4,971 nt of DNA, taken from the IMG/VR virus record IMGVR_UViG_2548876945_000007. One strand, written 5' to 3'. The position numbers were made by a program, and so were the translations under genes. This stretch comes from a virus. Its lineage: Duplodnaviria; Heunggongvirae; Uroviricota; Caudoviricetes. The notes below the pieces were generated by a model. It saw nothing but the letters and a program-made list of their open reading frames with translations. It was not told the DNA's origin and did not search any database. Position 1 is the stretch's first letter. Every line of letters begins with the position of its first letter. Shown in pieces: positions 2 through 4,560 of the stretch.

Positions 2-250
2 AAATGGGTGACCGATACTGAGGCACAGCATAGCGCCGCAGTAGACGCGGCAGAAGTACAGCGTCAGTCACTGATTAATACTGCAATGGCTTCCATTAGT
101 CTGATTCAACTTAAATTGCAGGCCGGGCGGCAGCTGATGCAGGCAGAGACCACCCGACTTAACACTGTGCTGGATTACATTGACGCGGTGACGGCAACAG
201 ATACCAGCACAGCGCCGGATGTCATCTGGCCTGAACTGCCGGAGGCGTAG
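2..250 (+). CDS. Tail fibre assembly protein, C-terminal part; the 5' end lies upstream of the window (frame is open to position 2, and the GTG at 8 is only the ORF-finder start)
   Basis: Translation ends ...LNTVLDYIDAVTATDTSTAPDVIWPELPEA, the C-terminal DTS-x-x-PD-x-x-WP signature I recall for lambdoid/Mu/e14-type Tfa proteins. TAG stop at 248-250. Converges on and overlaps the minus-strand tfa by 29 nt. Confidence 0.7.
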   Translation, partial: KWVTDTEAQHSAAVDAAEVQRQSLINTAMASISLIQLKLQAGRQLMQAETTRLNTVLDYIDAVTATDTSTAPDVIWPELPEA

Positions 251-659
251 GCCATTCAATATCTGGCCCACTGGAGGTATCAACCAGCTCCAGTGCGTCC
301 AGGTAATCCAGCCACAAATTATATTGCGCCAGTTCCTCGTCTTTCAGACGACCAATAGCGGCTTTACCGGGCCATTGTTTACTGTTCATGTATTCGTTGG
401 CCAGATTAAGCAATAATTGCCTTTCTGATTCTGCCTGTTGAATAAGTTCTTCATGTGATGGTGGAGGTATTAGTGCCCATGTGGGTAATCCATTTTCTCC
501 TGCAACACGAATTTTGCCATCTGGGGGCGTATTTATTGCAAATTCATTATAAACATCATCACTGACAGCCAGAGCATCATCTGGCCATGAATTTGCATTA
601 ATGTAATCATCCTTAAGTGCAGGATTCACAAAAATGTTTAAAGATGGACTATAAAACAT
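222..659 (-). CDS. Tail fibre assembly protein (145 aa), second inverted copy of the invertible segment
   Basis: C-terminus ...LWLDYLDALELVDTSSGPDIEWPTPPAVQAR carries the same Tfa C-terminal signature as the + strand copy. Its ATG (659-657) lies 1 nt after the TAA stop (663-661) of the upstream stf segment, a typical stf-tfa operon junction. Confidence 0.75.
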   Translation of the reverse strand: MFYSPSLNIFVNPALKDDYINANSWPDDALAVSDDVYNEFAINTPPDGKIRVAGENGLPTWALIPPPSHEELIQQAESERQLLLNLANEYMNSKQWPGKAAIGRLKDEELAQYNLWLDYLDALELVDTSSGPDIEWPTPPAVQAR

Positions 660-660
660 A

Positions 661-1050
661 TTACACCCCTATAGCGATATAACGACCTAATACAGCGTTT
701 GCAGCAGTCGCTATGCTTGAAAAACCGCGGAACTGATTTGATGTAATTGCAGAAGCCGACAGGATTCCTGCGCCTGAAGGTGTATGCCCCACATGACTAA
801 CTATCATTCCATAACATGCTGACGGAAAGGCAAAAGGAAAATCATTAAGATATCCGGCATCTTCACCACCAGACCCACCAAATCTCGCCTGCCCCCACTG
901 AATAATCAGTGTTCTCCGGGAACCTGAAATAATTAACGGAATCGTTACATACCCATTCAGACCAATGACACCCGATGCAGTGCCAGCCAGAGATAATTCT
1001 CCCAAACCAACGTTTATGAAAATGCAGAAATAACAAGCAAATGGCATCAT
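661..1050 (-). CDS. Tail fibre C-terminal variable (receptor-binding) segment, silent orientation copy without its own constant N-terminal part
   Basis: Gly/Ser/Ala-rich 129-aa ORF directly upstream of the tfa on the same strand. The frame is open only 9 codons beyond the listed ATG, up to a stop at 1077-1075, and the crossover site at 987-1012 lies inside its 5' end. This matches the Sv'/U' half of a Mu G-segment or e14 P-segment arrangement. Confidence 0.55.
   Translation of the reverse strand: MMPFACYFCIFINVGLGELSLAGTASGVIGLNGYVTIPLIISGSRRTLIIQWGQARFGGSGGEDAGYLNDFPFAFPSACYGMIVSHVGHTPSGAGILSASAITSNQFRGFSSIATAANAVLGRYIAIGV
987..1012. other. Hin/Gin/Pin/Cin-family invertase crossover site (hix/gix/pix-like), the right boundary of the invertible tail-fibre segment
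   Basis: The 26-bp sequence TTCTCCCAAACCAACGTTTATGAAAA has two imperfect inverted 12-bp half-sites around a central AA. It matches about 21 of 26 positions of hixL as I recall it (TTCTTGAAAACCAAGGTTTTTGATAA), including the AAACC..GGTTT-like core. It sits 65 bp upstream of the invertase start, where gixR/hix sites lie relative to gin/hin. Confidence 0.7.
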
Positions 1051-1076: not shown

Positions 1077-1211
1077 ATGCTGATAGGTTATATACGGGTA
1101 TCAACAAATGAGCAGAATACAGCATTACTAGGAAATGCGCTCGAGTGCGCAGGATGTGAGCTGATTTTTGAAGACAAAATATTTCGAACACTTCTCCCAA
1201 TTTTAAAGTGA
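1077..1211 (+). pseudogene. Truncated serine DNA invertase (Pin/Gin/Hin/Cin family); only about the first 35 codons are retained, then the frame reads into unrelated sequence and stops
   Basis: Translation from ATG 1077 is MLIGYIRVSTNEQNTALLGNALECAGCELIFEDKI, closely resembling the N-termini I recall for Pin/Gin/Hin (MLIGYVRVSTNDQNTDLQRNAL.CAGCE.IFEDK) and including the catalytic-serine context RVST. After nt ~1181 the translation FRTLLPILK-stop (TGA 1209-1211) has no invertase similarity. The ORF is too short to appear in the supplied track. Confidence 0.75.
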
Positions 1212-1310: not shown

Positions 1311-3923
1311 TTAGCTTACAGCTTGATCGAGATCTTCAAGTGCACAAATCATGGTTTCTACTGTTGCTCGGTCAAATTCAGCCCTTCCATCTTCCTCATG
1401 TGTGCCTTTGTTAAGATAGCGCCATTCTCGCGAATCTCCACTAATCCCAGTCAAAACGTCAATTGGACCAAAAACAGCACTTTTATTTTGATCAGTAAAA
1501 TCAGTTTTATTAATCTGTTTTTTTAATTGATCTGACAAATTACGTAACTCAATAGGTGAATTTGCCGACCGTAACTTAAGGCTAAGATTACCGTCACCAT
1601 ATTTATTTACATAGCGCCAGACCTTCACCTTCATCAGCGATTCAAGTGCCTGTCTACATTTAGCGAGAGCTTCCCTAATTTCATTACGTTCGTAATGTTT
1701 TCGTGCCGAGATAATGTAGTTCCTAGGGGCGCAGTTGAAATCGACACGAATATGCAATTCATCTAGACGTGGCAAGAAAGTGAAAGTCTTGGATTGAGCA
1801 GCAACCCGCGTAGGCAGTAAATTTTGGATATCTTTAAAAAATTCCTCTCCATGACAAGCTAGAATGATTTGCTTTTCGGCAAAGAACGTATCTTCAAATA
1901 ACGTTTTTCGAATGGAATCTCTATGATCGTCATCAATAGCATTTACCGGATCATCAAAAATTAAAAGTGGGCACTGCTCATTAATGTTTTTTGCCAATAA
2001 GATCGCTAGTCCTATACAGCGCACATGACCTTCACTTAGCACATGAAGGGCATCAAAATATTGTACGGGATTATTCTGGAACGCCACTTCCAACCGTTGA
2101 TTTTGCATCAGAGGTAATTTGATATCAGCGAGCTTTTCGCCTCTGGAATCATTACGGTTAAACGCATTATAAAGGGTAACAATGTTATCTCCGAGATTTG
2201 CTACGAGTTGCTGAGGTAAACGATCTTTATAGGCGTTCAATCGAATAACAAAGTTGGAATATGCCTCAGAAATTTCTTGGTTTTTCCTAACAATAGCTTT
2301 CTCATGCTCAACTTCATCAATAAGTTGCCTATTTTCGGCATTAAATCTGGTAATTAGCAACTGAGCTTCAGAGATGGACTTCTCTGTTTCCTCTCTTTTT
2401 GTCTGTAATATAGTTATCTGTCGTTCGGTTTCACGCAGACTATCAAGAGATTGCTGTTGCAGTTCTCGTCGTTTAATATTTTCATCTGTTTTTTTATCCT
2501 CTTTCTCCAGATGATGTACCTGTTCTTCAAGAAGAGTCCAAGGGGGTATCCCATCACCTGCCGGTTGCTGTAGTGCACACCACAAATCGCTTCCAGTTTT
2601 ATTTCGGAAATCTTCAAGTGGATTGCTATGCGGAATGAACTGACAACAAGTACTAATAACTTTATGAACGTCGAACATCAGCTGGCTGATTGATTTTTCC
2701 AACTGAGTTATTTCGTCTTGTAGTGTCGATAAAAACTTAAGTTTAAGCAATTCATTACTGGCATATTTGTAAGGGTTTTTTGCAACGTGCTGAAGTGGGG
2801 TATGACATGCAGGACAATGGTCAGGCTTGGTGCTTTGCAACTGGACTACGGCTTCAAATAAATTTTTAAAAGAAATTTGCTGACTTGCCTCTGCCAGTTG
2901 ATTTTGCTTGCCCTTAAGGTCTGTAAGCCCCTTTTCGACTGAATCACTGAGCTTTTTCAAAATGGCAGAGGTTAGACCACTCTTGGCCGGAAGCTGTTTT
3001 TGTAACTCGGTTTCAAGCTGCCGAATGACGCCGATATTTTGCCCATCCCCCTTCAACTCTACAACCATCTGATGGAAAGATATGCCTTCACGATAGCCTG
3101 AGGCTAGAGTTTGTTCTGCTGAGGTTAGTTCTTCAAGGTGGGCCTTACTCGTTTTCAGTTGCTGCTGTGCTCCCAAGAGAGATTGGCTCTTTGTTGCTAA
3201 TTGAGCAGCCTTTACGCCAGTCAGGTCGATATATCGGGCATCAATATCTGAGGTGAAATTTCGCACAAAATCATTAAATGTATCCAACCCGAATAATGTT
3301 GATATAAGTTCGGCTTGCTTTGCTGGGGCCAGAGCAGCGATTCTTGAAAAGCTGTCGATACGATTCTTTTCAATAAAACAAAAGCGATATTGTGTTTCAT
3401 TATTCTCAATCATCACATCCTGCTCTTGATCTCCAACACCTATAATTTCGGGAGCAGAAAACTGATTGACATATGCGTTTCTAAAATAGTCGTGTTGATT
3501 ACGAAAACGCTTACTTTCTGCCTCCGCGACGCGGCCCAGTAATGCGTATTCAAGTGCCTCGCAGAAACTGGATTTCCCCGTACCATTGGGGCCGTAGATC
3601 AGCACTAGGCGGGAATCTAAATCAAACTCCTCTCGTCTGGCAAATCCTCTAAATGGTCCAACAGACATCTTTCTAAGTCGGCTAAAGGTGGAAACACTTT
3701 CGGCGTTCTGCTCAGGGAGTGTTTGGACTTCTGGGCTGAGTGTATCCCAGGCGGATTGAGCCAGAGCGACAATACGTTTGACCCGCTGACCCTGTGCGGT
3801 TCCCAACGGCACGATTTCGTCAAGATTTTCCCACACAAGATTTGCTATTTTCCTTACATCACTTGGTACATCTGCTGTATTTAAGGTTTGAAAAAAACGC
3901 AACAACTCACTGCCGAGCATCAT
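1311..3923 (-). CDS. 870-aa Rad50/SbcC-like ABC ATPase with coiled-coil arms, CxxC zinc hook and a C-terminal putative nuclease/effector domain; RloC-like candidate anti-phage protein
   Basis: Uninterrupted 2.6-kb ORF in AT-rich DNA. Walker A GPNGTGKSS (aa 111-119; nt 3567-3593), CPAC hook (aa 370-373; nt 2805-2816) between two Q/E/K/L-rich coiled-coil-like stretches, signature-like LSEGH (aa 629-633; nt 2025-2039), Walker B LLIFDD (aa 653-658; nt 1950-1967), D-loop-like PVNAIDDD, H-loop His691, then ~170 aa C-terminal extension (aa 700-870; nt 1314-1826). SD-like AAGGA sits 3 nt before the first ATG (3923) and 6 nt before the second (3920), so the true start may be the second ATG. Confidence is for a real CDS with an ABC-ATPase fold; the RloC-like functional call is about 0.5. 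Confidence 0.88.
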   Translation of the reverse strand: MMLGSELLRFFQTLNTADVPSDVRKIANLVWENLDEIVPLGTAQGQRVKRIVALAQSAWDTLSPEVQTLPEQNAESVSTFSRLRKMSVGPFRGFARREEFDLDSRLVLIYGPNGTGKSSFCEALEYALLGRVAEAESKRFRNQHDYFRNAYVNQFSAPEIIGVGDQEQDVMIENNETQYRFCFIEKNRIDSFSRIAALAPAKQAELISTLFGLDTFNDFVRNFTSDIDARYIDLTGVKAAQLATKSQSLLGAQQQLKTSKAHLEELTSAEQTLASGYREGISFHQMVVELKGDGQNIGVIRQLETELQKQLPAKSGLTSAILKKLSDSVEKGLTDLKGKQNQLAEASQQISFKNLFEAVVQLQSTKPDHCPACHTPLQHVAKNPYKYASNELLKLKFLSTLQDEITQLEKSISQLMFDVHKVISTCCQFIPHSNPLEDFRNKTGSDLWCALQQPAGDGIPPWTLLEEQVHHLEKEDKKTDENIKRRELQQQSLDSLRETERQITILQTKREETEKSISEAQLLITRFNAENRQLIDEVEHEKAIVRKNQEISEAYSNFVIRLNAYKDRLPQQLVANLGDNIVTLYNAFNRNDSRGEKLADIKLPLMQNQRLEVAFQNNPVQYFDALHVLSEGHVRCIGLAILLAKNINEQCPLLIFDDPVNAIDDDHRDSIRKTLFEDTFFAEKQIILACHGEEFFKDIQNLLPTRVAAQSKTFTFLPRLDELHIRVDFNCAPRNYIISARKHYERNEIREALAKCRQALESLMKVKVWRYVNKYGDGNLSLKLRSANSPIELRNLSDQLKKQINKTDFTDQNKSAVFGPIDVLTGISGDSREWRYLNKGTHEEDGRAEFDRATVETMICALEDLDQAVS

Positions 3924-3972: not shown

Positions 3973-4560
3973 ATACACTTTCAGATTATTTTTTCACGTG
4001 ATCTGCAAATCAAATTTTTACTAATGCTGGCTGATTCGTTATCGACAAACATGTCTTCCTTTTTCCATTCTTACCAGCGATCAGCAAAGCAAATTACACG
4101 GACATGTTACCAGAGTGGCTTAAACATTCTGCTGGTGGGCGCAGTTTCAGAGTGAGCATTAATTAGCAATAACTTATCCAACCACCCAGAGCTATATCCC
4201 AAATGATGGGGTCAAAATGCAGTTGTTCATTACGCTCGCTCAGAAGCATAACGGCGCTACGTTGAAACGTCCGATGGATTCTGGATCGTATGGAATGTCG
4301 CGTTCAACTTCTTCATGGAGTAGGCGAGACAATCTTCACGCGTCATTGACTATGAAAAGCGTCCACACCTAGAAAACTCCGGTCACCTGTAAGATTGAAA
4401 GTATAAGGTATCGTTCTACACGAAACGATTTGACTCCTATAACTGAAAAGCGGTGTCGGTAGTTAAAGGCATTAGTGCCTATTTGGCATATGGAAGCTGA
4501 GAAAGAAAAGAATGGTACTCGTTGATGGGGATAGTTTAAGCACAGTAATTTAAGTAGATG

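Follow-up and report, generated by a model that had tools for sequence, protein, structure and literature searches.

A conserved CPAC motif as the probable zinc hook of an RloC-like ABC ATPase fused to a HEPN domain

Analysis of a 4,971-nucleotide stretch of viral DNA (the window) showed a gene for an 870-aa Rad50/SMC-like ABC ATPase with a coiled-coil insert and a C-terminal HEPN domain (1311–3923, minus strand, as are all features below). The CPAC motif of this insert is real and is probably the zinc hook of a new RloC-like variant, through which the protein probably binds zinc and dimerises, and the HEPN domain probably acts as an RNase. Among the explanations considered for CPAC, a Rad50-type zinc hook was judged the likely one overall.

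The RefSeq version of the protein starts one codon downstream, at the second Met, giving 869 aa, and is named 'AAA family ATPase'. The N-terminal helical domain (aa 1–80; 3684–3923) has no family match and contains R47, which is invariant across the family. It is followed by the N-terminal lobe of the ATPase head (aa 81–223; 3255–3683) with Walker A (G111-PNGTGKSS-119; 3567–3593). The C-terminal lobe (aa 591–715; 1779–2153) carries the signature LSEGH (aa 629–633; 2025–2039), Walker B (LLIFDD, aa 653–658; 1950–1967), a D-loop, and the invariant H667 and H691. Since Walker B ends in DD instead of DE, the head may turn over ATP slowly or for regulation. The two lobes are separated by an ascending coiled-coil arm (aa 224–355; 2859–3254), which is weakly conserved, an apical loop (aa 356–390; 2754–2858), and a descending arm (aa 391–590; 2154–2753). 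The loop bears the family signature C-P-[AVL]-C-x-[TS]-P-[LIV]...[ND]-P-[FY]-x-x-A, to which CPAC belongs, with the putative zinc-hook residues C370 and C373 and the invariant P371. In agreement with the earlier note, CPAC was located at aa 370–373 (2805–2816, read from 2816 to 2805 on the minus strand), within HCPACHTPLQH at aa 369–379.

The protein has no CxxC other than CPAC. Shuffling the 870-aa sequence yielded some CxxC in 16% of the shuffles and one within aa 350–395 in 1%, so that its presence in a single sequence is little proof of function. Conservation was far more informative: C370, P371, and C373 were invariant in 120/120 close homologues (at least 56% identity), 118 of 119 full-length homologues with identities down to 28% retained them, and they were present in all 68 full-length genes taken each from a different species. 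Within aa 224–554, only these three residues and T375, P384, and A388 were at least 90% conserved, and the cysteines and proline of CPAC formed the sole conserved island in approximately 330 residues of variable coiled coil. Given this near-perfect conservation at the coiled-coil tip, CPAC very probably forms a zinc hook of the kind known from Rad50, Lamassu LmuB, and RloC. The homologue alignments showed no other conserved Cys or His near CPAC, nor a further Cys, His, Asp, or Glu ligand, which suggests a two-Cys half-site per chain, as in Rad50. The flanking histidines, proposed earlier as additional metal ligands, did not withstand the same comparison. None of H369, H374, and H379 is conserved: distant homologues most often have I/K/R at 369, E/K/L at 374, and Q/K/S at 379, and K374 and Q379 prevail even in close homologues. 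The arm cysteines C426, C427, and C449 were likewise ruled out as intramolecular ligands, being unconserved in distant homologues.

Two approaches agreed on the presence of coiled coil on both sides of CPAC. The AlphaFold2 model of the protein (mean pLDDT 79) had helices at aa 237–277 and 319–349 N-terminal of CPAC, with a break at 278–318, and at 391–429, 461–530, and 532–574 C-terminal of it, with a break at 430–460. A crude heptad scan exceeded the 99th percentile of shuffles at approximately aa 211–275, 319–352, 385–430, and 490–598, and nowhere in the head domains. The model and fold searches together gave a Rad50/SMC head in two parts, a pair of helical arms, CPAC in the inter-arm loop, and a C-terminal HEPN fold. 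The top fold matches were Rad50 structures, and the LmuB structure 9hqu was also matched; from these matches to Rad50/SMC, rather than from measured contacts, we infer that the arms pair antiparallel. A whole-family profile searched against PDB sequences matched only Rad50/SMC/ABC heads. The best PDB match of a hook profile was the Rad50 hook 6zff, with CPaC aligned on CPVC at an E of 0.056 that is not significant on its own; a match to the Rad50 hook 1l8d was also non-significant on its own (E 0.32). Two characters of a Rad50-type hook are present: a CxxC placed in the inter-arm loop of a coiled coil that interrupts the ABC head, and a pair of strictly conserved cysteines unaccompanied by other ligands from their own chain. 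Conservation, model, and fold matches support the original proposal of a CxxC hook of the Rad50/SbcC/RloC type at the apex of the coiled coil.

The C-terminal domain (aa 716–870; 1314–1778) has the helical-bundle fold of HEPN domains and resembled classical MNT-associated and Csm6 HEPNs; a profile of this domain retrieved only noise from PDB sequences. The domain contains the invariant motifs R757-x3-E761 (1641–1655) and W834-x3-N838-x-G840-x-H842 (1398–1424), with R757, E761, N838, and H842 invariant across the family. An Rx4-6H motif can be read in the E. coli protein as R835-x6-H842, but neither R832 nor R835 is conserved in the family. Because the canonical HEPN arginine is not conserved, the assignment of R757, E761, and H842 as the putative active site rests on pattern analogy.

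In its genomic setting the gene is a rare accessory, found on mobile elements and beside restriction-modification (R-M) or BREX genes, and is very probably mobile and of the anti-phage type. It recurred immediately downstream of type I R-M hsdS (in one locus in the order hsdS-X-hsdR, as for prrC) and downstream of BREX brxL, and in some loci it preceded a nuclease gene resembling sbcD. Neither the 80 loci compared nor the window showed a recurrent partner gene, and an obligate partner gene is absent. The family comprised 286 clusters when grouped at 50% identity (E at or below 1e-30); no homologue was present in 50,697 phage records. The window contains no tRNA or tmRNA genes, and promoter-like sites were no commoner in it than in shuffles.

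A RloC-like way of working, reasoned by analogy, was the best model for the protein. Two chains, each contributing two cysteines, would share one tetrahedrally bound Zn2+. The metal would link the two arms within a single dimer or else arms that belong to two separate dimers on DNA. If the protein works like RloC and Lamassu, its ATPase head may sense phage-associated DNA (ends or abnormal DNA); ATP binding and hydrolysis, together with a change in the arrangement of the hooked coiled coils, would then free a silenced HEPN RNase. The freed RNase would cut cellular RNA, possibly in tRNA anticodon loops, and so abort the infection. The gene would act alone. It is carried at prophage ends and on satellites and conjugative plasmids, or is appended to R-M and BREX operons, where it would form a second line of defence.

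Alternatively, the hook region could serve mainly for docking, either of a different protein or of the HEPN domain of the same protein, and not as the point of homodimerisation; the cysteines would still bind zinc but would act in sequestering the effector. In Lamassu, LmuA and LmuC are positioned at the hook of LmuB, the structure having the effector subunit and the kleisin-like subunit in contact with the coiled coils near the hook, and LmuB models were the best defence-database matches to the hook region of the present protein; the conserved element beyond the CxxC (TP[LI]...NP[FY]xxA) also suggests an interaction surface. However, no gene for an LmuA- or LmuC-like partner is conserved beside the gene, and with two cysteines per chain a complete zinc site would still call for ligands from a second chain or elsewhere. 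Docking is moreover compatible with a dimeric hook and does not exclude it, and as the main role of the region it was considered unlikely.

The apical loop is poorly defined in the AlphaFold2 model (pLDDT about 48–56 at aa 356–390), which leaves some room for reading CPxC as redox-sensitive or as a structural feature within one chain (a disulfide, for example, or a zinc knuckle completed by other residues of that chain) in place of an intermolecular hook. CPxC motifs are also found in thiol-disulfide oxidoreductases. The protein has no thioredoxin fold, however; its CPAC lies between two long helices, the conserved additional ligand that a same-chain site would call for was not seen nearby, and the best structural and sequence analogues are the hooks of Rad50 and LmuB, making this explanation highly improbable.

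Little more can be said for a DNA-processing ATPase of the SbcC/Rad50 type, active in repair or in the degradation of DNA, in which the hook would tether DNA ends and the HEPN domain would bind RNA or protein without catalysis, and which we regard as very doubtful. The protein does pass the superfamily-level Pfam SMC_N model (60.8 vs. a cut-off of 40), in line with the Rad50 fold matches, and in 4/80 loci an sbcD/mre11-type nuclease gene follows downstream with a 4-nt overlap. The remaining 76 loci, including that of the window, lack SbcD, and the NCBIfam Rad50 and SbcC-type models scored far below their cut-offs (Rad50: 31.7 vs. 700). The invariance of R757, E761, N838, and H842 is what would be expected of a catalytic site, and a rare accessory gene beside R-M and BREX systems does not fit a repair function either. 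That the CxxC is a chance motif without function, as its frequency in shuffles might suggest, was refuted by its invariance across approximately 240 homologues, with identities down to 28%, while the 330 surrounding residues vary.

The protein represents a second family with the RloC architecture, distinct in sequence and widespread, whose probable hook resembles those of Rad50 and LmuB and not that of RloC. Among characterised proteins, to our knowledge, RloC alone has an RNase under the control of a zinc hook, and the way in which RloC is activated has so far been described only as a model. The new family offers an independent system, native to E. coli, in which to study the activation of a toxic nuclease by a hook together with a DNA-sensing ATPase. 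Mutating the hook makes RloC hyperactive, whereas in Lamassu it abolishes defence; the outcome of such mutations in the present family would reveal the use made of its hook. Inventories of defence genes probably miss the gene, since it is named only 'AAA family ATPase' and its best matches in PADLOC (2023) are models of other families.

In comparison with known systems, the earlier note had implied that the protein is RloC, a Zn-responsive tRNase that excises the wobble nucleotide (PMC2610378; Davidov and Kaufmann, 2008; Klaiman et al., 2012); the likeness holds for the architecture but not at the family level. As in RloC of Geobacillus kaustophilus, an ABC head split by a coiled-coil/CxxC insert is followed by a C-terminal domain of the HEPN RNase type, and this domain has a RloC-like R-x3-E...H set. 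The three features by which Davidov and Kaufmann define RloC operationally were all found, namely ABC ATPase motifs (Walker A, LSEGH, Walker B, and H691), a CXXC (CPAC), and an Arg/Glu/His ACNase triad (the invariant R757-x3-E761...H842). Like RloC, the gene stands alone and is sometimes linked to type I/III R-M and RhuM-like genes. In contrast, the score against Pfam AAA_13 (PF13166), the RloC/PrrC family, was 26.4 bits, below the cut-off of 36, and ten diverse relatives reached at most 23 bits or gave no match. The hook signature is CP[AV]CxTP here and H-x(3-5)-C-x-F-C-[GN] in RloC, the latter as read from a supplementary alignment with poor character recognition. Furthermore, the spacing from R-x3-E to His is 81 residues vs. 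41 in RloC, the 80-aa N-terminal domain is additional, and the HEPN fold is likened to classical MNT-associated and Csm6 HEPNs, unlike that of RloC.

The fusion of an ABC ATPase to a C-terminal HEPN domain is shared with PrrC, APECO1_4465, and ERFG_01251 (Anantharaman et al., 2013). PrrC also resembles the present family in its location within or after type I R-M operons and on prophages, but lacks both a coiled coil and a hook. The APECO1_4465 protein has 738 aa, and the APEC O1 strain has no DNA-level homologue of the 870-aa gene; the HEPN domain of the ERFG_01251 group is likewise described as classical.

As regards Rad50/SbcC, the hook sits at the tip of a coiled coil, presumably with antiparallel arms, that leaves a split ABC head, and it forms a two-Cys half-site, some homologues have an SbcD/Mre11-type neighbour, and the motif shares with Pyrococcus furiosus Rad50 (CPVC; PDB 1l8d, 6zff) the pattern CPxC with a small hydrophobic third residue. 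The coiled coil is far shorter than in Rad50, however, the Mre11/SbcD partner is lacking in the window and most loci, and the present family carries a fused HEPN domain; the low NCBIfam score and the rarity of SbcD-like neighbours place it outside Rad50/SbcC proper.

The hook region is closest to those of Lamassu LmuB and Rad50. LmuB was the best PADLOC match of the whole protein (E 1e-26), and the hook region alone matched five LmuB models mid-profile (E 3e-4), both without a curated cut-off. The zinc hook of LmuB is functional and required for Lamassu defence, so the suggestion that CPAC sets the protein apart from hook-less SMC-like defence ATPases was too strong. Lamassu consists of three genes, with the LmuA effector and LmuC encoded separately, whereas no such neighbours occur in the window or the 80 loci and the effector-like HEPN domain is here fused to the ATPase. 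Tentatively, the protein could be a self-contained single-chain counterpart of Lamassu and SbcCD, in which zinc-hook bridging of DNA-bound dimers licenses the fused HEPN RNase and which some lineages pair with SbcD/Mre11; we consider this possible, if rather doubtful. If true, the family would link Rad50/SbcCD repair, Lamassu, and RloC-type anticodon nucleases in evolution and in mechanism, as a second line behind R-M and BREX.

The single long open reading frame of the window (1311..3923, minus strand) encodes an 870-aa Rad50/SMC-like ATPase; RefSeq, which starts the protein at the second Met, lists 869 aa under the name 'AAA family ATPase'. Its CPAC motif lies exactly where the earlier note had placed it, at aa 370–373 (2816..2805, minus strand), and is the only CxxC of the protein. 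A lone CxxC is unremarkable, since 16% of shuffled versions of the protein contained one (1% within aa 350–395), and it is conservation that decides whether the motif is real. C370, P371, and C373 did not vary in any of 120 homologues with identities of 56% or more. Of 119 full-length homologues with identities as low as 28%, found by searching 1.8 billion cluster representatives, 118 retained all three residues, as did 68 of 68 full-length genes, each from a different species. The family signature comprises C-P-[AVL]-C-x-[TS]-P-[LIV], a variable-length loop, and [ND]-P-[FY]-x-x-A. Within aa 224–554 its positions alone reached at least 90% conservation, and the mean top-residue frequency was approximately 0.3 in the helical arms flanking the motif vs. 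0.55 in the ATPase head lobes.

In the AlphaFold2 model (pLDDT 79), a three-helix N-terminal domain (aa 1–60) is followed by the N-lobe of the head, helices 237–277 and 319–349, a low-confidence loop (356–390) containing CPAC, helices 391–429, 461–530, and 532–574, the C-lobe of the head, and an all-helical C-terminal domain. The coiled coil that the earlier note had supposed around the motif was borne out by predicted helices on both sides and by a crude heptad scan, in which significance was confined to the two arms. Foldseek searches against the PDB ranked Rad50 on top (7zr1, E 4.6e-9), followed by coiled-coil SMC heads and LmuB (9hqu), the Rad50-like ATPase of Lamassu. Judged from topology and fold matches rather than measured contacts, CPAC would sit at the apex of an antiparallel coiled coil. 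Pfam placed the protein within SMC_N (60.8 bits, cut-off 40) and AAA_23, and the head contains a Walker A motif (G111-PNGTGKSS), the signature motif LSEGH (aa 629–633), a Walker B motif with DD in place of DE (LLIFDD, aa 653–658; window 1950–1967, minus strand), and the invariant H667 and H691. D658 is invariant at the position of the usual catalytic Glu of ABC ATPases. In the N-terminal three-helix domain (aa 1–80; window 3684–3923, minus strand), R47 was invariant across the 119 distant homologues; this domain had no match in Pfam or PADLOC and could have a regulatory or nucleic-acid-binding role.

No other reading of CPAC comes close to that of a Rad50-type zinc hook, from which we infer metal binding and dimerisation. 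C426, C427, C449, H369, H374, and H379 were all variable, and no further conserved Cys or His was found near CPAC among the homologues, so that each chain would provide two ligands only, a half-site like that of Rad50, which is completed by a second chain. The flanking H369, H374, and H379, once proposed as additional ligands, are unlikely to serve as such because they are not conserved. A hook profile (aa 318–432 of 23 diverse members), compared with 177,635 distinct PDB sequences, best matched the zinc-hook fragment of P. furiosus Rad50 (6zff, E 0.056), with CPaC on CPVC, and also the original hook structure (1l8d, E 0.32), both matches being suggestive only. In PADLOC, the hook region alone matched five different LmuB models (~3e-4 to 7e-4), mid-profile each time. 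According to a Lamassu preprint, defence depends on the zinc hook of LmuB. The contrast drawn earlier with hook-less members of the SMC-like defence ATPases goes too far: since LmuB carries a hook too, this feature does not separate the protein from that class as a whole. Overall, CPAC is probably a functional zinc hook.

Matches tabulated for the C-terminal effector domain were 4nqf (9.6), 2hsb (9.2), Csm6 (6tug; 9.0), the sacsin HEPN domain (8.5), and HEPN toxins (7.7 to 6.4). Invariant residues across the family were R757-x3-E761, W769, and W834-x3-N838-x-G840-x-H842; the Arg of the canonical Rx4-6H motif, R835 in the E. coli protein, was not conserved. Because R-x3-E…H matches the assigned catalytic triads of the anticodon nucleases PrrC (R320, E324, H356) and RloC (R692, E696, H737), the domain is most likely an active RNase, with its active site assigned by analogy. 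For the protein as a whole, we lean slightly towards an RNase that acts in abortive infection under the control of the hook.

The gene is rare and accessory (20 of 5,426 complete E. coli genomes). In the window it lies at the end of a prophage, flanked by a truncated DNA invertase on the tail-fibre side and by a truncated SOS-response peptidase gene. Positions 8–1211 are a remnant of an invertible tail-fibre segment, including tail-fibre assembly genes in opposed orientations (8–250, plus strand; 222–659, minus strand), a tail-protein fragment (661–1050, minus strand), and a Gin/Pin-type invertase (~1090–1203, plus strand) broken off after ~38 codons, where the ATPase cassette ends. The other flank holds the frameshifted, truncated SRAP/YedK-like peptidase pseudogene (~4123–4359, minus strand). 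In one strain ssrA lies just past this pseudogene, which suggests an integration hot spot. Homologues were present on 31 plasmids, conjugative for the most part, and in one case inside a P4-like satellite; 50,697 phage records contained none.

Among 80 species-representative loci no neighbour family exceeded 11%, indicating a one-gene system. hsdS was immediately upstream in nine loci, with hsdM and hsdR also in six, and the order hsdS-X-hsdR in one locus resembled that of prrC; brxL was upstream in two loci and a type III res gene in three. A RhuM-family gene was directly downstream in three species (L058, L065, L083). For PrrC/RloC-type ABC-HEPN proteins, Anantharaman et al. describe neighbourhoods of these two kinds, with restriction-modification (R-M) operons and with RhuM-like genes. 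In four species the next gene, with a 4-nt overlap, encoded an SbcD/Mre11-type nuclease (Metallophos + SbcD_C), the pair lying at ~10.64 kb in L015, L049, and L056 and at ~9.77 kb in L029. These four homologues retained both hook and HEPN motifs and had a BrxL or type III res gene directly upstream, which suggests an SbcCD-like pair added to BREX or R-M loci.

A mechanism can be modelled by analogy on Lamassu and on RloC, for which hyperactive hook mutants, inhibitory Zn2+, and a DNA-dependent ATPase have been described. The heads of two chains would engage upon ATP, and Zn2+ would join the coiled-coil arms via C370 and C373 of each chain, inside one dimer or between dimers on DNA. DNA sensing by the head, as the putative trigger, together with ATP turnover would shift the hooked arms and free the HEPN RNase, which would stop translation and abort infection. 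The analysis itself established the architecture, conservation, folds, and genomic context, from which zinc, dimerisation, trigger, RNase activity, and target are deduced with the help of these two models.

RloC has the same architecture, and the ABC motifs, CXXC, and triad by which Davidov and Kaufmann operationally recognise it are all present. Even so, the protein falls outside AAA_13, the Pfam family for RloC and PrrC (26.4 bits vs. a cut-off of 36): the match was limited to the Walker B/D-loop stretch (aa 650–719), and ten diverse relatives scored 23 bits or less. RloC also differs in its hook context (H-x3-5-C-x-F-C-G) and lacks the extra N-terminal domain. Rad50/SbcC proper was rejected because scores were far under curated cut-offs and SbcD is usually absent, and Lamassu because LmuA and LmuC are absent. 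PADLOC PDC-S06 (PDLC04891, PDLC04893) is a candidate single-gene defence family with profiles of ~860 positions; it is co-linear with the protein from the hook on (aa 367–701 to profile 379–694, E 2.8e-10) and may be a sister family of the same architecture. Several 866–874-aa 'RloC orthologues' tabulated by Davidov and Kaufmann (2008) may belong to the present family, as may the 'ERFG_01251' ABC-HEPN group of 2013, in which case the family has already been catalogued in silico; a description of its hook was not found in the literature. We file the protein with the Rad50-like zinc-hook ATPases that control a fused or associated toxic nuclease, as a variant of that kind.
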